The translations under genes were made by a program, and so were the position numbers. A stretch of DNA of 64,000 bases from an uncultured bacterium (GTDB lineage: Bacteria; Patescibacteriota; Minisyncoccia; UBA6257; GWB1-50-10): contig CAIKKG010000014.1 in assembly GCA_903827975.1 (NCBI GenBank), positions 52,833-116,832 on the forward strand, read 5' to 3'. Within the stretch, counting starts at the first letter, position 1; the number at the start of each line of letters is the position of its first letter. A model generated the notes under the pieces. That model had not been told where the DNA came from, did not search any database, and worked only from the letters and a program-made list of their open reading frames with translations. This document shows, in pieces, positions 2,549 through 50,067 of the stretch.

Positions 2549-3121
2549 TTACTTTGGTGCATCTACACCCAATATTTTTCTTAGCTTATTTATTGCTCTC
2601 AAGTGTCTACTTTTTACGGTATTTACTGATTCATTTTCTATCTCCGCAATTTCCCTGAATGTAAGTTCTTCTTTGTAATGGAGAATTAGCGCCGTTTGAT
2701 ATCTTGGGTTAAGTTTCCCTATTGCTGACTCGAGCTCCTCCTTCAGGCTTGCTCTATCAAAAAGTTCTGCTGGGAGTGGATTTTCATCTTCAATTGTTTC
2801 ATCAAATTGCTGTTCGTCGCCCTCCTTTGTGACATCAGAAAAAGTAGATGGTTTTTTCTTGCGTAGCCAGTTTAGCGATGCATTTTTTGCTATTGCAAAG
2901 ATCCAGGTTTTAAATTTTTTACTGGTATCAAACTTATCGATATTTTTCCAAATACTTACAAATATATCCTGTGTTATGTCTTCAGCATCGCCCACGTTCC
3001 CAACATAGCGAAAAACGAACCCAAAAATGGGTTTTATGTGGCGTCTAACCAGTATTTCAAGTGCCCGATTCTCGCCATTTATATATGCAGTTACAAGCTC
3101 CTCATCTATCCGCTCGTCCAT
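2549..3121 (-). CDS. RNA polymerase ECF-type sigma-70 factor (sigma-24 family)
   Basis: Region 2 (DAEDITQDIFVSIWKNIDKFD) and region 4 (REIAEIENESVNTVKSRHLRAINKLR) sigma-70 motifs in a 190-aa protein. Confidence 0.85.
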   Translation of the reverse strand: MDERIDEELVTAYINGENRALEILVRRHIKPIFGFVFRYVGNVGDAEDITQDIFVSIWKNIDKFDTSKKFKTWIFAIAKNASLNWLRKKKPSTFSDVTKEGDEQQFDETIEDENPLPAELFDRASLKEELESAIGKLNPRYQTALILHYKEELTFREIAEIENESVNTVKSRHLRAINKLRKILGVDAPK

Positions 3122-3194
3122 AATTTATATTATATTCGATAACTCTAAATTCTGATACGCTGAAAACAGTTCATTTTTGTGATATGCTTTTATC

Positions 3195-3794
3195 ATGTCT
3201 GGACTCACAACATCTGCAATATTGGCGCTTATTATTAAATATAAGTATCTAATAATATTCCCAATCGCTGTGTTGGAGGGTCCGTTGATCTCTATGGCAG
3301 TTGGTTTTCTTATTTATTCTGGCTATCTAAATGCATTTTTTGCGTTTACACTTCTAATTCTTGCTGATTTGGTTGGAGACTCACTTTACTATTCTATCGG
3401 CCGATTTGGACGAAAAACATTTATCCATAAATATGGACGTTATATTGGAATTAATGAGGAGCGCGTCCTAAAACTAGAGACTCAGTTTGAACATCATCAT
3501 TGGAAGATAATTGCTGTAGGTAAAACGCAGGCCGTCGGCTCTCTCATACTTGTTGCTGCTGGTATTGCAAATGCGCCGTTTAAGAAATTTTTGTGGTATA
3601 ACCTTTTAGGAACTGTGCCAAAAACTTTAATTTTTGTTTTCATCGGATATTTCTTTAGTCATGGATTTGAGGCAATTACTTCATTTTCGAACTCAATCGG
3701 AATTATTTCAATCGGAATGTCGGTAGCATTACTCATTTTTTACATAGTTTTTAAGATGTATTTGAAAAAGAAGAGTCATCTAAATGGACAGTAA
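3195..3794 (+). CDS. DedA/SNARE-associated (VTT domain) membrane protein
   Basis: 199 aa, multi-TM, DedA-like core LADLVGDSLYYSIGRFGRK... Confidence 0.65.
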   Translation: MSGLTTSAILALIIKYKYLIIFPIAVLEGPLISMAVGFLIYSGYLNAFFAFTLLILADLVGDSLYYSIGRFGRKTFIHKYGRYIGINEERVLKLETQFEHHHWKIIAVGKTQAVGSLILVAAGIANAPFKKFLWYNLLGTVPKTLIFVFIGYFFSHGFEAITSFSNSIGIISIGMSVALLIFYIVFKMYLKKKSHLNGQ

Positions 3795-4821
3795 AAAGAA
3801 AATTGTAATAGTTACTGACGCCTGGCATCCGCAAAAAAACGGCGTTGTCGTGCACTCAGAAAAAATGTATGAGTATCTAACAGCTAAGGGTCATGAGGTT
3901 GTGATTATTCACCCTCAACTTTTCCCTTATAAAATGCGTGTTTTTTTCTATCCTGAGATTGAGCTGTCTCTACTTGTTGGACGAAAAATGCGAGCACTAT
4001 TAAAAGAGCATTCTCCATACTATGTTCATATCGCGACTGAGGGCCCCCTTGGCCTTGCTGCGCGAAAATATTGCATTCAAAATAGGATTAAATTTACTAC
4101 CACCTATCACACACACTACCCCATGTACATTGAGGCCAGGCTTAGCGCACTTTCAAAGATAACATCAGTATATATACGATGGTTTCATAGTGCAGCATCA
4201 CGAACCATGGTTTCAACACCTTCATTAAAATTATTTTTAGAAAATGTTGGATTTAAGAATCTGGTTATTACCCCGCTTGGTGTTGATATAGGTCTACTTA
4301 AAAAAAATGATGAGCCTAAAATTCCAAAGGAACTTGCTGGATTACCACATCCGTTTTTCATATATTTCGGTAGAGTTGCAATAGAAAAAAATGTGGAGGC
4401 ATTTTTAAAATGCAATCTTCCTGGAACAAAAATTGTTTCTGGTGGTGGCCCGCAGCTAAAGGAGCTAAAGAAAAAATATGGGAAAAGCACTATATTCATT
4501 CACTCTGCTGGTTATAAGCGAGACCAGTCATTTATTGACCTGCTTTCACTTGCGGATGTATTCGTATTCCCATCGAAAACTGAAACATTTGGACTTGTTC
4601 TATTGGAGGCACTGGCCTGCGAACTTCCAGTTGCAGCGTACGACGTGATGGGGGCAAAAGACATAATCATACAGGGAGCTCATGGATTTACAGGAGATAA
4701 TTTAGAAAAGGCAGCGCTAATGTGTCTCAACTTACCACGCGAAAATCTGCGAAAAAGAGCCGATGAATTTTCATGGGAGAATGCTGGTAATACATTTTTT
4801 CTGCATCTGGAAGAAAATTAA
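3784..4821 (+). CDS. Glycosyltransferase family 4 (GT-B, GT1-like)
   Basis: N-terminal TDAWHPQKNGV and C-terminal ...FPSKTETFGLVLLEALACELPV... GT4 signature (E-x7-E region). Confidence 0.8.
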   Translation: MDSKKKIVIVTDAWHPQKNGVVVHSEKMYEYLTAKGHEVVIIHPQLFPYKMRVFFYPEIELSLLVGRKMRALLKEHSPYYVHIATEGPLGLAARKYCIQNRIKFTTTYHTHYPMYIEARLSALSKITSVYIRWFHSAASRTMVSTPSLKLFLENVGFKNLVITPLGVDIGLLKKNDEPKIPKELAGLPHPFFIYFGRVAIEKNVEAFLKCNLPGTKIVSGGGPQLKELKKKYGKSTIFIHSAGYKRDQSFIDLLSLADVFVFPSKTETFGLVLLEALACELPVAAYDVMGAKDIIIQGAHGFTGDNLEKAALMCLNLPRENLRKRADEFSWENAGNTFFLHLEEN

Positions 4822-7543: not shown

Positions 7544-8146
7544 ATGAAGATTAAATATAAAATAATTGTTGTAATAGCGCTTTCGTTTTTTGTTGGCGTC
7601 TTTTTTCAGACACCTAAAATGGGCGTATTTATAAGTATAAATAAAGAGGAAAGTGAATCTACTACATCCTCAGTAAAATCTTCAGGAGTAAGAATACGTG
7701 CTCATGTTACGCGCGTCATTGATGGTGATACACTAAAAGTATTTATTAATGACCGCAATGATACCGTGCGCTTAATCGGAATCGATAGCCCGGAGATTGT
7801 TGATACTCGAAAACCAGTTCAGTGTTTTGCAAATGAGGCTTCTGCAAAAATGACGGAGTTAGTCTCGGATGCCTCCGTATTTCTCGAGGAGGATGCAACA
7901 CAGGGAGACAGAGATAAGTATGGGCGTCTCTTGAGATTCGTATTTTTAGAGAACGGAAATGATATTGGAGAGTTAATGCTTGAAGGTGGATATGCATTTG
8001 AATATACACACAATAAGGCCTACAAATATACTTCAGAATATAAATCATCCGAAAGTGATGCTAGAAATACAAAAGTTGGTTTATGGAATCAACTAAATTG
8101 TCTCACCAAAATTGTTGGCGGACGATTGGAAACTATATATAAATAA
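7544..8146 (+). CDS. Secreted thermonuclease (staphylococcal nuclease / SNase fold)
   Basis: N-terminal TM/signal anchor; VIDGDTLKV...RLIGIDSPE...YGRLLRFVFLENG...GYAFEY matches SNc catalytic core. Confidence 0.85.
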   Translation: MKIKYKIIVVIALSFFVGVFFQTPKMGVFISINKEESESTTSSVKSSGVRIRAHVTRVIDGDTLKVFINDRNDTVRLIGIDSPEIVDTRKPVQCFANEASAKMTELVSDASVFLEEDATQGDRDKYGRLLRFVFLENGNDIGELMLEGGYAFEYTHNKAYKYTSEYKSSESDARNTKVGLWNQLNCLTKIVGGRLETIYK

Positions 8147-8148
8147 AA

Positions 8149-8172
8149 ACCCGCACAAATTTCTGTGCGGGT
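8149..8172 (-). terminator. Hairpin terminator (T-run on minus strand) for the GC-rich small ORF
   Basis: acccgcacaaatttctgtgcgggt, followed on minus strand by TTTTTATTT. Confidence 0.6.
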
Positions 8173-8179
8173 GAGGAAT

Positions 8180-8395
8180 TTAATCCAGACGAACGGTCTC
8201 CTTAAGGATACCGGCGATAAGTGGAGCCAGTCTACTGGCCTCGCTGGCATCGGCTGAGTGGAGCACGAGTATTGATGACCCCGTCTCCAACTCACCTATT
8301 TTTTTATTGCCACGCCAGATCTCTAGTCTGTCCTCCTCCTTGGCTACTAGGTAGCCGACAGCTTCCAGAAAACTGATAATCTTCCTTTCTCGCAT
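8180..8395 (-). CDS. Small GC-rich hypothetical protein (71 aa from ATG 8395; possible HicA/YcfA-like fold)
   Basis: ORF-track ORF 8180..8440 trimmed to the ATG preceded by AGGAGGtaat; local GC ~50% vs ~35% background; weak C-terminal resemblance to HicA (..VLHSAD..LAPLIAGILKE). Confidence 0.4.
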   Translation of the reverse strand: MRERKIISFLEAVGYLVAKEEDRLEIWRGNKKIGELETGSSILVLHSADASEASRLAPLIAGILKETVRLD

Positions 8396-8504
8396 ATTAC
8401 CTCCTTTCAAGGTAGTTCTAGAATTACATAATTTACTCATTTTGTCAATGAATACTCTAATTTCCTTTTTTTCTTATATATAATGTATGTTGTTGGCTAA
8501 AACA

Positions 8505-8519
8505 CTGATTGACAATCAG
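8505..8519 (+). promoter_or_regulatory. Perfect 15-bp palindrome CTGATTGaCAATCAG overlapping a TTGACA -35 box upstream of the ABC-F gene
   Basis: Seen directly; candidate operator for a dimeric regulator plus -35 element, -10-like CATTAT 17 nt downstream. Confidence 0.4.
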
Positions 8520-8566
8520 CAAAATATTTGTCATTATTGACGTTCTGGCGCAAAACTAATAAACAC

Positions 8567-10018
8567 ATGGCACGCAACGAAGTTATATTACGATTTGATA
8601 AGGTTTCCTTTGAATTTGGACACCATTCCCCCATCCTAGATGAGGTTGATTTTTCAGTTCGCGAGGGAATGAAATTTACGCTTATGGGACAGAATGGCGC
8701 TGGAAAAACAACAATTTTCCAACTGATTACAGGAAGTCTAACTCCTGAGTCTGGAAAGGTTATTATTACTAATGATGCCTCCATCGCTATTGCTCGTCAG
8801 GTAATCCCAAGAGATCAGATGAGTCTTACGGTAAGAGAATTCTTTGAAAAGTGTTTCGATAAAAAAATATATGATATCGACCCTAGAATTGATGAGGTTC
8901 TTGAGGTTGTAAATTTAAATGCTCCACATGAAAGAACCGTCGGTTCTTTTTCAGGAGGTCAGCAAGCAAGGCTTTTACTTGCTTCAGCTCTCATTCAGAA
9001 GCCAGACCTGCTTTTACTTGATGAGCCTACAAATAATCTTGATAAGGCTGGCATCGCCCACCTTACACAGTTTCTTATTGATTATAAGAAGACATGCATA
9101 GTAATTTCTCACGATGCAGACTTTTTGAACGCATTCACACATGGTGTTTTATACTTGGATGTTTTCACAAGGAAAATGGAGCAGTACTCTGGTGACTACA
9201 AGGATGTGGTAGCCGAGATTTCTGCACGTATAGAAAAAGAAAACAGAAAGAATGCTTTACTTGAAAAAGAAATACAAGCAAACAAAGATAAGGTAAACTT
9301 TTTTGCACACAAGGGAGGACAGATGAGGTTGGTTGCAAAGAAAATGAGAGAGAAGGTTGAGGAGATGGAGGCCGCAAAAGTTGATGTGCGTAAGGAGGAT
9401 AAAACAATCCGTCAGTTTTTTATTCCTTCACAGCCAGAGCTAATTGGTGAGATTCTTAATATCTCAACTGTTTCAATATTCAAGGATCACAAACCAACGG
9501 TAAAAAAGGTTAAGATTTCAATGAAGAAGAATCAGCACTTACTCCTCGTAGGAAGAAATGGAATTGGAAAAAGTACTCTTCTTGAGGCATTAACACATAA
9601 AGATAACAAAGGTTCCACAATAGCAGAGGATGTTCGTGTAGGATATTACCGCCAGGATTTCTCAACACTAAATTTCGAGGATACTGTATATAATTCATTA
9701 GCATCTGTTGCTGATAATGTAGGAGAGGAGCAATTACGATCAGCTGCATCCGGATTTCTTATTGATGAGGATATGATGAGGCAGAAGATAGGCTCATTGT
9801 CAGAAGGTCAGAAAGGACTTGTGGCATTCGCACAACTCGTCTTACTAAGGCCTGGACTCTTAATACTTGATGAACCTACAAACCATATTAATTTTCGTCA
9901 TATACCTATAATAGCTAATGCTTTAAATAAGTATGAGGGAGCAATGATATTAGTAAGTCACGTGCCGGAATTTATTGAACAGATTCGTATTGACGAGACA
10001 TTTGATTTAGAAAAATAG
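8567..10018 (+). CDS. ABC-F family ATPase (tandem ABC domains, no TMD; translation-factor type)
   Basis: Two Walker A (GQNGAGKTT, GRNGIGKST) and two signature/Walker B sets (LSGGQQARL...LLLDEPTNNLD; LSEGQKGLV...LILDEPTNHI) with a charged linker; ATG at 8567 preferred over the ORF-track start 8528. Confidence 0.85.
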   Translation: MARNEVILRFDKVSFEFGHHSPILDEVDFSVREGMKFTLMGQNGAGKTTIFQLITGSLTPESGKVIITNDASIAIARQVIPRDQMSLTVREFFEKCFDKKIYDIDPRIDEVLEVVNLNAPHERTVGSFSGGQQARLLLASALIQKPDLLLLDEPTNNLDKAGIAHLTQFLIDYKKTCIVISHDADFLNAFTHGVLYLDVFTRKMEQYSGDYKDVVAEISARIEKENRKNALLEKEIQANKDKVNFFAHKGGQMRLVAKKMREKVEEMEAAKVDVRKEDKTIRQFFIPSQPELIGEILNISTVSIFKDHKPTVKKVKISMKKNQHLLLVGRNGIGKSTLLEALTHKDNKGSTIAEDVRVGYYRQDFSTLNFEDTVYNSLASVADNVGEEQLRSAASGFLIDEDMMRQKIGSLSEGQKGLVAFAQLVLLRPGLLILDEPTNHINFRHIPIIANALNKYEGAMILVSHVPEFIEQIRIDETFDLEK

Positions 10019-10028
10019 AATAAAAATA

Positions 10029-10058
10029 AACCCCGAATTTAATCGGGGTTTATTTTTT
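10029..10058. terminator. Bidirectional hairpin terminator between ABC-F (+) and DEAD-box helicase (-)
   Basis: aaccccgaatttaatcggggtt flanked by A-run and T-run. Confidence 0.7.
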
Positions 10059-11682
10059 ATCTTCCTCCAAATTTTGCTGGCCTAGAACCACGGCTTCTGA
10101 ATCTTGGCGTCTTTCTATCCTGAGATGCTCCTGGAGCGCCGGATGTTCTTGGTGCATAAGATGAGCCAGCCCTTGGTGCTCGTGATGAACCTGATGTTCT
10201 TTGCGCATATCCCGAGCTAGGTGTTCTTGGTGCGTATGATGAACCTGTTCGTGGCGCGTACGATGAGCCAGATGTTCTTGGTCCACTTGAAGTTCTTGGT
10301 GCGTATGATGAACCTGTTCGTGGCGCGTACGATGAGCCAGATGTTCTTGGTGCATAAGACGAACCTGAAGTTCTTGGTGCGTATGATGAACCAGCGTGAG
10401 TTGGTCTTGAAGAAGGTGTTCGTGAGTGAGATGAGTTTGCTCTATCCCTATTCATATGAGGGAACCTTCGTGAAGGCGCCTGACGTCTCTCTTCGCGCTC
10501 AGGTGGAATTCCTGTTTTTACTGAAGGTAATGCTTGAGGTAGCTCAGGCAGTTTTGAAACTGGGAGTGTTGATCTAATAAGTTTTTCAATCGAGCGGATA
10601 TCATCGCGCTGATTTGGGCGGGCAAATGAAATTGCATGACCACTAACACCTGCACGGCCAGTTCGTCCTATGCGGTGAACATAATCCTCTGCATTTTCAG
10701 GAAGGTCATAGTTTATAACAACCTCAATATTACTTACATCAATACCACGAGCTGCAATATCAGTTGCAACAAGAACACGGAACCTACCATTTTTGAACCC
10801 TTCTAATGCTTCACGTCTCTGACCAAGTGAGCGATTCGAGTGAATCTCCGCTGCTGCATGTCCTAAAAAGCGGACAGTTGCTGCAATTCTTTTTGCATTA
10901 TGTTTTGTTCTAGAAAATACGAGGACTGAACCGTTGTATTCCTGCAATAATTTTTCTAAAAGTCTAGCCTTATCCTCCTGTGAAACTATAAATAATTCCT
11001 GAGTTACATCTTTTGCGGTACTACCTGAACGCGCTATTTCAATGCGAACCGGCAATTTCATGTATGTCCTTGCAATTATTACGATTTCCTCAGGCATTGT
11101 TGCTGAGAAAAGCATTGTCTGTCTCTCCTCAGGAATTGAAGAGATAATTTGTTTTAATTGTGGAGCAAAACCCATATCAAGCATTCTGTCTGCTTCATCA
11201 AGCACAAGCATTGAAACCTTATCAAGGTTTATTGTTTTCTGGTCTACATGATCAATCAATCTTCCAGGTGTTCCTATTACAATATCAGGGCGTCGCGCTA
11301 ATGAGCGAAGTTGTCGTGACATTGGCTCACCTCCAATTATTACTGATGTTTTTACACCAAGTTGAAGACCAACTGTATTCAATGACTCTGCAACCTGAAT
11401 AGCAAGTTCACGTGTTGGTACTACAATAAGACCAAGTCCGTTAGCTTTTAAAATTCTCTGTATCATTGGGATACCAAATGCGAGTGTTTTTCCAGTTCCT
11501 GTTTGTGCTACACCCATAACATCCTTTCCTTCCATTGCAATCGGAATAGCCTGTTCTTGAATAGGCGTTGGTTTTGTAAAATTAAGCTTTGCAAGGATTC
11601 CTAGTATTCCTGGAGCAATTCCAAGTCCTTCAAATCCCCTTTCGTTATTTGTCATTCGGGCACTATCATAACACATTGACAA
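10057..11682 (-). CDS. DEAD-box ATP-dependent RNA helicase with repetitive S/Y/R/P-rich C-terminal tail
   Basis: Q-motif, AQTGTGKT, VLDEADRMLDMGF, SAT, HRIGRTGRAG motifs; C-terminus is tandem SGSSYAPRT repeats. Confidence 0.9.
   Translation of the reverse strand: MSMCYDSARMTNNERGFEGLGIAPGILGILAKLNFTKPTPIQEQAIPIAMEGKDVMGVAQTGTGKTLAFGIPMIQRILKANGLGLIVVPTRELAIQVAESLNTVGLQLGVKTSVIIGGEPMSRQLRSLARRPDIVIGTPGRLIDHVDQKTINLDKVSMLVLDEADRMLDMGFAPQLKQIISSIPEERQTMLFSATMPEEIVIIARTYMKLPVRIEIARSGSTAKDVTQELFIVSQEDKARLLEKLLQEYNGSVLVFSRTKHNAKRIAATVRFLGHAAAEIHSNRSLGQRREALEGFKNGRFRVLVATDIAARGIDVSNIEVVINYDLPENAEDYVHRIGRTGRAGVSGHAISFARPNQRDDIRSIEKLIRSTLPVSKLPELPQALPSVKTGIPPEREERRQAPSRRFPHMNRDRANSSHSRTPSSRPTHAGSSYAPRTSGSSYAPRTSGSSYAPRTGSSYAPRTSSGPRTSGSSYAPRTGSSYAPRTPSSGYAQRTSGSSRAPRAGSSYAPRTSGAPGASQDRKTPRFRSRGSRPAKFGGR
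10118..10400. repeat. Coding tandem repeat (27-nt unit, with a ~60-70-nt higher-order duplicate)
   Basis: gttcttggtgcgtatgatgaacctg... repeated >=8 times; creates spurious overlapping ORFs 10050..10355(-) and 10221..10577(+). Confidence 0.85.
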
Positions 11683-46176: not shown

Positions 46177-46306
46177 TGGGTTAGTTTCTGTTCTCGCGTT
46201 GACAATGTAAAAATTCTATGACAATGTAGTTTTAGGTAATTAAAAAACCTCTTCTGTGCGTCGTGCATCATCAGAGAAAATAATACACTTAAACCAAGGA
46301 GGTAAT

Positions 46307-46873
46307 GTGGTTAAAAAGAAGCTGGCGCTCAGGCTCCTCAAGAAGAAAGTCGACTCACTTTTGGTGCGGGAGGAGAAGAAAGAAAAGGTAATGGAACAAC
46401 CCCCAATTGCACTCATGATTCCAGAAAAACTTCTGGTTTCTCAGTGCGACGGGGCGGAGACCTGCCTTCAGAGCGGACTCTTCTTCCCAATCAAAAATAA
46501 AGATGCGAAGGATGTCATGCATCTTGATTCCGCAGTAAACAAGCCGACAACAGCCGCAAAGGTCCGCGTCTACGAACTCAAACGTGATGCAACCTTCGGC
46601 CAGATGTTCAAGCACCTTAGGAATAATCCTCGCAAAATGTGTTTCACAGAGGCACAGATCTGCACCTTCATCCGTGAGAATAAACACGTTCTCACGAGCT
46701 GTGATGCAACATTCTTCCCGTTCGCCCTCAAAAGCGGAAAGGTGGCAGTTCTGCACGTCACCTACTACCCAGAGATTTCGGAGGACCAGTTCTGTATGTA
46801 CACATACCCTATTTGGAATCTCAGGCCATGGAATACGAAATTTAAATTCCATCTTGTTGTAATGTCTAAGTAA
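46307..46873 (+). CDS. Hypothetical protein, GC-rich islet, paralog of 49546..50067 (unknown Cys/His-containing family)
   Basis: GTG start 4 nt after AAGGAGG (ORF-track ATG 46256 lies upstream of the SD); ~50% GC; K-rich N-terminus; shares KRDATFGQMFKHL/TKHATTQEIMKFV, ..SC.., ..V.HV.YYP/..NVHSGYWTP blocks with protein at 49546. Confidence 0.55.
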   Translation: MVKKKLALRLLKKKVDSLLVREEKKEKVMEQPPIALMIPEKLLVSQCDGAETCLQSGLFFPIKNKDAKDVMHLDSAVNKPTTAAKVRVYELKRDATFGQMFKHLRNNPRKMCFTEAQICTFIRENKHVLTSCDATFFPFALKSGKVAVLHVTYYPEISEDQFCMYTYPIWNLRPWNTKFKFHLVVMSK

Positions 46874-46879
46874 AAAAAT

Positions 46880-46899
46880 CCCCCGCCAATTGGCGGGGG
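46880..46899. terminator. Bidirectional hairpin terminator
   Basis: cccccgccaattggcggggg flanked by A-run and T-run; near-identical to the hairpin at 49522. Confidence 0.75.
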
Positions 46900-46907
46900 T
46901 ATTTATT

Positions 46908-47954
46908 TTAATATGCAGTCGTAAGACACACGTGATGAGGGTAGTCAAAACTCTCCTGTCCCTTAATCCATCTATATGAGTCGAGCTCGCAAATAGAAAT
47001 CGGGCGAAGTCCTTCAGTTCCTCTACACGCATTGATGATTTTTAGTTCTTCCATTTGTGCGAATACCGTAGCGGCCCTCAACTCAGTTTCCATTCTTGAG
47101 CCCGCTTTAATTATGGAACGGTCCATAATTTTTTGCATAAGAGAATCTGAGTATATAAAAATTCCATCAGAATGATACCCACGAGGAATCTCATAATCAG
47201 GAATTGGCCCAAGATATTCAATATCTTCAATTAGCCTTTTGAACTTCTGAGTGGCTTTCTCGTGATAGATTTTTACGAATAGTTGCGCTCGTTTCATGAA
47301 ATGAAATTTGCGTACATTACCTTCACCATCTACAAGTGTCGCGTTATCTGCTCCAAAAGTATTTGGGAATTTATTTAGTAGAATATCTACAACACCATCA
47401 CTTCCGTTCTTGCCAAATGCACGATATTGTCCTTCTTCCAAAATATTCATTGGGTCGCCATCAAATTTTTCACTTACAACGATGGCGGCCTCTTCAAGTA
47501 GATCCCTGCGCTCACCAATCATTGGTAAATCATTGAATCCCTTGAAAAACTTTTTTGTTCTTCCAAGCGAAAAAACAATATTCAAAATATCATTTGCATA
47601 TACTGGTGACTCATGGAATGTGCGGAAAAAGCACGCCCCCATAGCGGCGGAACCAAACTTAACATTGTTCCCTGATTTTGCGGAAAATGTAAGCTCATAC
47701 TCTGTTCGAAACTGCCCAGGATGAGCAAAACAGAAATTTACGCACGAGCGCCAAAACTCCTGAGTTACGAATGCGAGAAAATCATGCGCATAAATAGCAT
47801 CGTCATTCCACTTCGGAATAGAAAATTTACGAAGTGCAACTTCAGATGCGGATGCAAAAAGCATTGCCTCGTCTACATATACATGCTGAGGAACTAATGC
47901 TGACCAACTTTCAAGCGTTTCCTGCGTACGCCAATTCATGTGTACCTCCTTCAA
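46908..47954 (-). CDS. QNG1/DUF2419-like protein (putative queuosine 5'-phosphate N-glycosylase/hydrolase, queuosine salvage)
   Basis: Recalled-from-memory similarity to human C9orf64/QNG1 blocks: FL..VTQEFWRS (FLVDTLNFSFW), KFDGDPMNIL (KFGGSFLNCV), FMKRAQLFV (FYKRAQILV), ELDSYRW (LLDYYLW), ..DYPHH.. C-terminus. Confidence 0.5.
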   Translation of the reverse strand: MKEVHMNWRTQETLESWSALVPQHVYVDEAMLFASASEVALRKFSIPKWNDDAIYAHDFLAFVTQEFWRSCVNFCFAHPGQFRTEYELTFSAKSGNNVKFGSAAMGACFFRTFHESPVYANDILNIVFSLGRTKKFFKGFNDLPMIGERRDLLEEAAIVVSEKFDGDPMNILEEGQYRAFGKNGSDGVVDILLNKFPNTFGADNATLVDGEGNVRKFHFMKRAQLFVKIYHEKATQKFKRLIEDIEYLGPIPDYEIPRGYHSDGIFIYSDSLMQKIMDRSIIKAGSRMETELRAATVFAQMEELKIINACRGTEGLRPISICELDSYRWIKGQESFDYPHHVCLTTAY

Positions 47955-49545: not shown

Positions 49546-50067
49546 TTAGAACGAGACCATGATTATCGTTCCGGGCGTCCAATACCCGGAGTGGACATTG
49601 AGGGCCCAGGTGCCATCAATGCACCTGCCGGCAGCCAAAATGCTCTCCTTCTTCTCATCTCCAGATTGGAGGGAGACTAGCGTCTTGCAACTCGGCATCA
49701 CATTACTGCAATACCGGATTGCGATTGCGAGCCCTTGTGGCCCGAGAAGCGTTGGCCGGCCAGGAAGGCCAGCCACGAACTTCATGATTTCCTGCGTTGT
49801 AGCATGTTTCGTTGCGTAGAAAAAGGCAAGGCGCCTTTTCCCGGGCAGAGGGTGGATATTCCCAGCCTCTAATGACTCGAAGGTGCGTTCGAAGAGGTGG
49901 ATACTGACCTTCCCACCACGACGAAGGTAATCGAAGTGGTTCACCACGGATGTGGGTACCCTCACCATGCTCTCGGTGAGGAAGGGAAACGGCTCCTGAC
50001 CCTGCATTAGGTCACGGATCCGCCCTTGGAATGCCCGATAGGGCTTCGTCGTATTCTGATTCAGCAT
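49546..50067 (-). CDS. Hypothetical protein, GC-rich islet (~55-57% GC), paralog of 46307..46873
   Basis: 173 aa; AAGGAG SD 5 nt upstream of ATG; inserted between secY and adk; no recognised domain. Confidence 0.55.
   Translation of the reverse strand: MLNQNTTKPYRAFQGRIRDLMQGQEPFPFLTESMVRVPTSVVNHFDYLRRGGKVSIHLFERTFESLEAGNIHPLPGKRRLAFFYATKHATTQEIMKFVAGLPGRPTLLGPQGLAIAIRYCSNVMPSCKTLVSLQSGDEKKESILAAGRCIDGTWALNVHSGYWTPGTIIMVSF

Follow-up and report, generated by a model that had tools for sequence, protein, structure and literature searches.

The window analysed here is a stretch of 64,000 nucleotides from an uncultured bacterium of the Patescibacteriota (contig CAIKKG010000014.1, positions 52,833 to 116,832). 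Between the gene of a staphylococcal-nuclease homologue (SNase) and that of an ABC-F ATPase, with a 171-bp intergenic region toward the latter, it harbours a minus-strand open reading frame (ORF) of 71 codons at 8180-8395, called the small gene below. Its translated product is MRERKIISFLEAVGYLVAKEEDRLEIWRGNKKIGELETGSSILVLHSADASEASRLAPLIAGILKETVRLD. We are highly confident that this is a real, vertically inherited small protein with a predicted KA1/TBP-like fold, and that it does not belong to the HicA toxins. As a whole, the locus is probably best explained by a genuine monocistronic, lineage-restricted gene inherited vertically beside the ABC-F gene and encoding a non-enzymatic binding module. 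The features of the locus are as follows.

8180..8395, minus strand: small-protein coding sequence, 71 codons (ATG 8395..8393, TAA 8182..8180)
8396..8405, minus strand: Shine-Dalgarno (SD) region AGGAGGTAAT, directly before the ATG, a perfect anti-SD match
8420..8425, minus strand: predicted -10 hexamer AATTCT, 17 nt beyond the -35 hexamer, from by-eye comparison of upstream regions
8443..8448, minus strand: -35 hexamer TTGACA of the small-gene promoter, read from the sequence
8137..8172, minus strand: intrinsic terminator with a 10-bp GC-rich stem, stem-loop ACCCGCACAGAAATTTGTGCGGGT (8172..8149) plus T-run
7544-8146, plus strand: SNase gene (PF00565)
8509..8537, plus strand: divergent ABC-F promoter TTGACA-17-CATTAT with TG, conserved in the related loci L086 and L009
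8567..10018, plus strand: ABC-F ATPase gene, divergent from the small gene

Coding region and expression signals

The preliminary description of this stretch had reported a patch of about 50% GC between the thermonuclease and ABC-F genes, containing a 71-aa ORF with its own terminator, and all of this was confirmed. In 200-bp windows, 8100-8399 has 48.5-50% GC, against 30-42% in the flanks and an average of 39.3% over the window. The ORF itself has 50.5% GC and a GC content at third codon positions (GC3) of 0.54, a value that lies between 0.24 and 0.41 for 49 of the 52 long ORFs in the window. Judged by sequence comparison, the ORF is a genuine protein-coding gene and more than a chance reading frame, because orthologues exist and the ratio of nonsynonymous to synonymous substitution rates (dN/dS) within their subclades is 0.06-0.16.

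In AT-rich genomes, GC-rich islets frequently turn out to be RNA genes. A structured RNA, non-coding or antisense, with the ORF incidental, would agree with the folding of both strands, which is better than that of dinucleotide shuffles (z -4.25 for the minus and -3.43 for the plus strand), and with a plus-strand hairpin followed by the T-run TATTTTTTTATT inside the ORF, at about 8250-8310. However, the folding score is partly due to the terminator hairpin, and the T-run, which is complementary to the codons for N-K-K-I, is missing in the orthologues, where NGEPFG or NEERIG is encoded. The Rfam 15 scan gave no family at gathering score and nothing credible in 8050-8600 even at E<=10; its sole match with E<0.01 (8250-8310, E 0.007) was a spurious one to an animal microRNA model. 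Over the whole window, only three tRNAs were detected. The great majority of substitutions are synonymous, and indels preserve the reading frame. On the Rfam results and the substitution pattern the RNA gene was rejected, and we regard it as very improbable.

The hexamer TTGACA occurs at the equivalent place in all orthologous loci (L086, L091, L092, L009, L089, and L094), and the upstream regions of the orthologues have a promoter-like TTGACA-17-TGnGATATT in common. In the window, a TG at 8428..8427 precedes AATTCT and predicts an extended -10 element. A simple promoter scan did not list this promoter, its -10 hexamer being weak. At the other end of the gene, the terminator hairpin also lies 3 nt past the SNase stop codon on the plus strand, there without a T-run. 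The L086 and L009 orthologues possess their own GC hairpin and T-run in the same place.

Public annotations of the same protein (MEI6479814.1, MCX6788623.1) have 86-87 aa and start at ATG 8440 (8438-8440), 15 codons earlier. Since this ATG is not preceded by an SD and falls within the spacer of the predicted promoter, the annotated version is probably over-extended and 71 aa is the better start.

The use of SD motifs in the window is low, and 44 of the 52 long ORFs lack an SD-like motif within 20 nt of their naively assigned starts. The full AGGAGG precedes only four plausible starts: 8395, 46307, 47939, and 62585. The start at 47939, with AGGAGGT, is that of a queuosine-salvage gene (Q_salvage, PF10343) of native composition. 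The 10-mer AGGAGGTAAT has a second copy at 46297-46306, where the preliminary description had placed a recurrence of the whole initiation region including ATG; the 10-mer does recur, but the start codon there is GTG (46307). Seven of its ten bases are the anti-SD complement. For a 13-mer with <=1 mismatch, 0.15 matches are expected, and one extra match is statistically unremarkable. The two copies are best read, on sequence grounds, as two independent perfect anti-SD matches. Orthologues also have strong SDs, with the different strings AGAGGAG, AAGGAGG, and AAGGAG. The strong SD is thus unusual in the window, yet GC-rich ORFs are not alone in having one, and the orthologues differ in its exact string. 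The proposal that this string marks acquired cassettes fails on the same two points, the other strings of the orthologues and the AGGAGGT of the native queuosine-salvage gene.

Family, neighbourhood and descent

Searches with the window protein alone recovered little. A word-indexed search of 5.8 billion proteins returned near-identical copies from the same species only, and an exhaustive phmmer search of 1.84 billion cluster representatives returned, besides the same-species protein, only giant beta-propeller-type repeat proteins. The latter are spurious: each score adds up some 20 repeat matches to residues 15-37 that are individually below threshold. Orthologues were found by synteny, in a scan for relatives of the ABC-F protein that used a single genome for each species and yielded 80 ABC-F loci. 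The two nearest species by ABC-F (90% and 86% identical) possess a small minus-strand ORF in the same gap:

L086, 3622-3876, minus strand: orthologue of 84 aa
L009, 3540-3857, minus strand: orthologue of 105 aa

The window, L086, and L009 proteins have the pattern ..FLeeqGY.., ..N.E.IG.L.., ..A..IAGiLK.. in common. Examination of small ORFs upstream of ABC-F in the 80 loci, together with a six-frame hidden Markov model search, detected the family in L086 and L009 only. A profile built from the three sequences recovered 10 clusters, and a second iteration with 11 sequences recovered the same 10, all from close Patescibacteria relatives (metagenome-assembled genomes, MAGs, labelled Jorgensenbacteria, Paceibacterota or 'Patescibacteria group'). 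They form three subclades that are 27-35% mutually identical, with proteins of 71, 84, and 105 aa. A scan of JGI metagenomes with the family alignment found no member, probably since confirmation used the window sequence alone. Pfam, PHROGs, NCBIfam, and PADLOC scans with the window protein and the 11 family members gave nothing meaningful. In this the protein is similar to other lineage-specific hypothetical small proteins of the Candidate Phyla Radiation (CPR)/Patescibacteria, likewise known only as 'hypothetical protein' and without a Pfam, NCBIfam, PHROG or PADLOC family. It differs from them in that it has been shown to be a real gene and its start, family boundaries, and neighbourhood are established, together with a confident fold prediction. 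A public 'hypothetical protein' of CPR MAGs has thereby become a defined gene with a probable corrected start, a 10-cluster family, a predicted fold, and a constant neighbour.

That neighbour is the ABC-F gene, which lies directly upstream on the opposite strand for every family member with enough flanking DNA. The best NCBIfam match of the window copy (8567-10018) is ribosomal protection-like ABC-F, at 321 bits, below the cutoff of 380. The downstream neighbour differs: SNase in the window species and L086, thymidylate kinase (TMK) in L009 and L089, and isochorismatase in L091. Within the species, strain-level contigs, first eight and then twelve, are 99.4-100% identical over the region and have the same gene order. 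The small gene is present in all 13 strain-level copies (the window, L001-L008, and L095-L098).

Two observations were made on related loci. Compared with L086 and L091, L092 has about 105 bp inserted between ABC-F and the small gene (about 620-730), which parts the divergent promoters; the inverted-repeat ends of this insertion, CCCGTTAGAAATG … CATCTCTAACGGG, give it the look of a miniature inverted-repeat transposable element. In L011, whose ABC-F is 79% identical, the GC content around the gene (3000-4000) is about 55-62%, and base composition therefore ranges widely within this small clade, from 39% to about 60%.

Synonymous sites between subclades are saturated, with a proportion of synonymous differences (pS) of 0.75-0.88. 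The dN/dS between two haplotypes within the species is 0.12, close to the values within subclades, and length differences among relatives are in frame. By these comparisons, the small gene is under purifying selection and vertically inherited.

The preliminary description had assigned the small gene to the same mobile pool as other GC-rich islets in the window, that is, to a recently acquired cassette from a common foreign source marked by AGGAGGTAAT. The GC3 of the gene exceeds that of its neighbours, and it does so in all three subclades:

Window species: small gene 0.54, neighbours about 0.29
L086: small gene 0.47, neighbours about 0.39
L009: small gene 0.60, neighbours about 0.45

Similarly high GC3 values occur in just two further ORFs of the window (46307-46873 and 49546-50067); both lack Pfam hits and have SDs, and the first is preceded by the identical 10-mer at 46297. 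The family is also absent beyond its narrow clade, and a gain in the clade ancestor, by transfer or de novo, is possible. Nevertheless, orthologues occupy the identical position in three subclades. Any acquisition would be old, because the site is the same in subclades whose synonymous sites are saturated. The gene is carried by every strain-level copy, no direct repeats flank it, and no integrase or transposase was found nearby. No relatives were found among IMG/VR contigs, phage records or plasmid records (for phages and plasmids, tblastn gave nothing credible), and the SD strings, as described above, do not follow the supposed marker. A flanking AT-rich inverted repeat of 16 nt (8134-8149 / 8467-8482) was dismissed as a low-complexity chance occurrence, with nothing similar in L086 and L009. 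Taken together, these comparisons do not support a recent cassette from a shared pool, which we consider unlikely. In a genome that is AT-rich and poor in SDs, high GC and a strong SD do not by themselves make an islet a recent acquisition.

The gene is also the most variable part of its locus. In the alignment of 7544-8700 over the 13 copies, 13 of the 17 variable columns fall inside the 216-bp ORF; the polymorphic stretch is 8181-8377, its flanks are 99.4-100% identical across strains, and the adjoining SNase gene (603 bp) has one variable site only. A Fisher test for clustering of these single-nucleotide polymorphisms (SNPs) gave p ~0.0015, with roughly estimated synonymous-site counts. The two haplotypes differ by six synonymous substitutions (CGT to AGA included), one I7V replacement, and an in-frame GTG insertion. 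The cluster looks like a diverged allele imported by recombination, or like a hotspot of mutation at this place. Both the cluster and the GC3 excess, which is long-lived, hint at unusual dynamics at the small gene, and the two are small, concrete puzzles on recombination or mutation bias in Patescibacteria.

Predicted fold and possible function

AlphaFold2 with the single sequence reached a predicted local distance difference test score (pLDDT) of 74.8, and a Foldseek search of the PDB with this model gave no hit below E 0.35. With the alignment of 11 sequences, the pLDDT was 86.7 and the predicted template modelling score 0.70. The elements of the AlphaFold2 model are:

Residues 2-12: helix 1
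Residues 16-20: strand 1
Residues 23-28: strand 2
Residues 31-37: strand 3
Residues 43-47: strand 4
Residues 50-64: helix 2
Residues 68-70: strand 5, short

The predicted topology is alpha1-beta1-4-alpha2-beta5 and KA1/TBP-like, with an antiparallel meander of four strands that follows the first helix and precedes the second. The product (7.9 kDa) is predicted to be a soluble, single-domain alpha/beta protein, without signal peptide, Cys or conserved His. The alignment-based model was compared with PDB chains and with predicted viral structures. Among PDB chains, the structural neighbours and their similarity scores are:

BRSK1 KA1 (5iri_B): 7.9, root-mean-square deviation (rmsd) 1.8 Å over 64 residues
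Chk1 KA1: 7.3
IntS9 C-terminal domain (CTD): 7.1
METTL16 VCR: 6.9
AMPK-alpha CTD: 6.8
MARK1 KA1: 6.7
TUT1 KA1: 6.7
Other TBP-like folds (phosphoglucomutase C-domain, RNase HIII N-domain, BamC, TBP, RnlA/LsoA N-domains): 5.0-6.4

Predicted viral structures gave weak matches only (best E 1e-3), mostly to uncharacterised phage proteins, some with TM scores of 0.73-0.79.

In three dimensions the model thus has the KA1 fold. However, no family member matched the KA1 sequence profile (PF02149) in the Pfam scans, and structural alignments with KA1 and KA1-like domains (MARK/BRSK/Chk1 C-termini, METTL16 VCR, TUT1 KA1, IntS9/IntS11, and CPSF73/100 CTDs) show 8-25% identity and no sequence relationship. 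KA1 is a C-terminal domain of eukaryotic kinases or RNA enzymes, whereas the small protein is bacterial and stands alone with 71 aa; it lacks the N-terminal KA1 strand and has a short C-terminal strand instead. KA1 domains bind acidic phospholipids or RNA through a conserved basic surface. In the small-protein family, net charge is not conserved (pI 4.9-9.6), and such a surface may be lacking. The TBP-like proteins of prokaryotes (RNase HIII N-domain, phosphoglucomutase C-domain, BamC N-domain, RnlA/LsoA N-domains, and BDI_3606) are domains of larger proteins or exceed 100 aa. They have no detectable homology to the small protein, and their functions are too diverse for transfer.

The preliminary description had also likened the C-terminal part of the protein to HicA/YcfA mRNA-interferase toxins, which would make it an orphan that has lost HicB. 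HicA proteins are RNases of 50-100 aa with a dsRBD fold, need a conserved Gly-x-His for activity, and are encoded with HicB (PMC11594946). The small protein (PF07927 and COG1724 being the HicA families) is alike in its size class, in being a small single domain (71, 84 or 105 aa in the subclades), and in its generic order of helix, beta-meander, and helix. Two mycobacteriophage models named 'HicA-like toxin' were present among its weak Foldseek matches (E 0.018-0.025). Its sheet has four strands, whereas that of HicA has three, and it possesses neither a Gly-x-His motif nor a HicB partner. In Pfam at E<=10 the window protein matched no family, and PF07927 was unmatched by all 11 family members. 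The family profile searched against all PDB chains gave two hits only, both at E~1 and neither to HicA. No column of the family alignment has an invariant or near-invariant His; the window protein has a single His, His46, opposite which relatives have F or E, and the L086-type protein has no His. Superposition of the model on HicA was poor (TM ~0.5, rmsd ~7 Å) and did not recover the dsRBD-like alpha-beta-beta-beta-alpha fold. The gene is a monocistronic unit with SNase, TMK or isochorismatase, and ABC-F as neighbours, and no HicB-like gene is among them in any examined locus, which agrees with the earlier remark that no antitoxin is adjacent. Profile, His, HicB, and superposition tests all speak against membership, and only the generic order of elements is in common; we regard a HicA-like toxin as extremely unlikely. 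One false toxin-antitoxin lead is hereby removed. The earlier interpretation is partly supported overall, its HicA and mobile-cassette readings not being supported.

A component of a conflict system, such as an immunity, antitoxin or anti-defence-type protein, would explain fast evolution and allele diversity by an arms race. The small proteins of different subclades are about 28-35% identical, in comparison to 86-90% for the adjacent ABC-F, polymorphism at the locus is concentrated, within the species, in the ORF, and uncharacterised phage proteins as well as RnlA/LsoA toxin N-domains are among the structural neighbours. However, PADLOC and PHROG gave no match, the monocistronic unit provides no partner gene, and six of the seven within-species substitutions are synonymous, which, with the low dN/dS, indicates purifying and not diversifying selection. 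Neighbouring SNase and TMK are also just 44-54% identical, and the small protein is fast-evolving without being exceptional. We consider such a role improbable.

The preferred explanation is a very small, fast-evolving family of one narrow Patescibacteria clade, passed down vertically at one fixed place back-to-back with a ribosomal-protection-like ABC-F gene. Its gene would have a sigma-70-type extended -10 promoter and a strong intrinsic terminator of its own, and would be translated from an SD unusually strong for a genome where most genes have none. Invariant columns of the family contain core hydrophobic residues and Gly only, and net charge is not conserved across subclades (pI 5.8, 4.9, and 9.6). 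Because no conserved polar residue is fit for catalysis and the charge swings this widely, the product may be a non-enzymatic binding or adaptor module acting through protein contacts. We propose the adaptor as its mode of action only tentatively. Half-TBP and KA1-like units commonly pair through their sheets, and since IntS9/IntS11 and the CPSF73/100 CTDs are among the hits, a sheet-mediated homodimer, like that of other TBP-like half-domains, is plausible.

The sole candidate for a partner suggested by the context would be the ABC-F factor or the translation machinery. The small protein could be a dedicated accessory of the neighbouring ribosomal-protection-like ABC-F, for example a KA1-like adaptor that binds ABC-F or the ribosome and tunes its activity. 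We consider this accessory role doubtful, and a specific link to ABC-F or the ribosome, as far as synteny suggests one, is similarly unlikely. If true, the accessory role would add a previously unknown kind of ABC-F partner, limited to few Patescibacteria, and the persistent GC-rich codons together with within-species allele import would mean recurrent recombination at the locus. The link would also provide a handle on the regulation of translation factors in reduced genomes.

Several points weigh against the explanation preferred here. The link to ABC-F rests on synteny in a narrow clade and could persist for lack of time, and where ABC-F identity falls to <=79%, the orthologues stand beside unrelated genes and the small gene is absent. 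The predicted fold rests on a shallow alignment (11 sequences, three subclades), and folds of this class serve many different functions. The GC3, far above that of the genome, and the SNP cluster point to a history or constraint beyond simple vertical descent. The small gene is an ordinary, previously uncharacterised, lineage-specific protein gene of little importance in itself.

Other features of the window

The first of the two other GC3-rich ORFans (46307-46873) encodes 188 aa from the GTG at 46307, with a GC3 of 0.59 and the SD AGGAGGTAAT. Pfam gave no hit for it and viral contigs no relatives, and a strong terminator follows at 46876-46900. Its promoter region (about 46190-46225) contains two copies of TGACAATGTA spaced by about 20 nt, a possible operator. 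The second (49546-50067, minus strand) encodes 173 aa, with a GC of 0.55, a GC3 of 0.66, the maximum in the window, and the SD AAAGGAG. The searches of Pfam and of viral contigs were as negative as for the first.

A DEAD-box helicase gene (10057-11682, minus strand) encodes a C-terminal tail of degenerate tandem repeats (…GSSYAPRTS…) that is GC-rich, especially at 10100-10500. The length of the helicase differs by strain, with 509 aa in L002, 516 aa in L003, and 541 aa in the window, and BLAST segments are repeated in L004 and L007.
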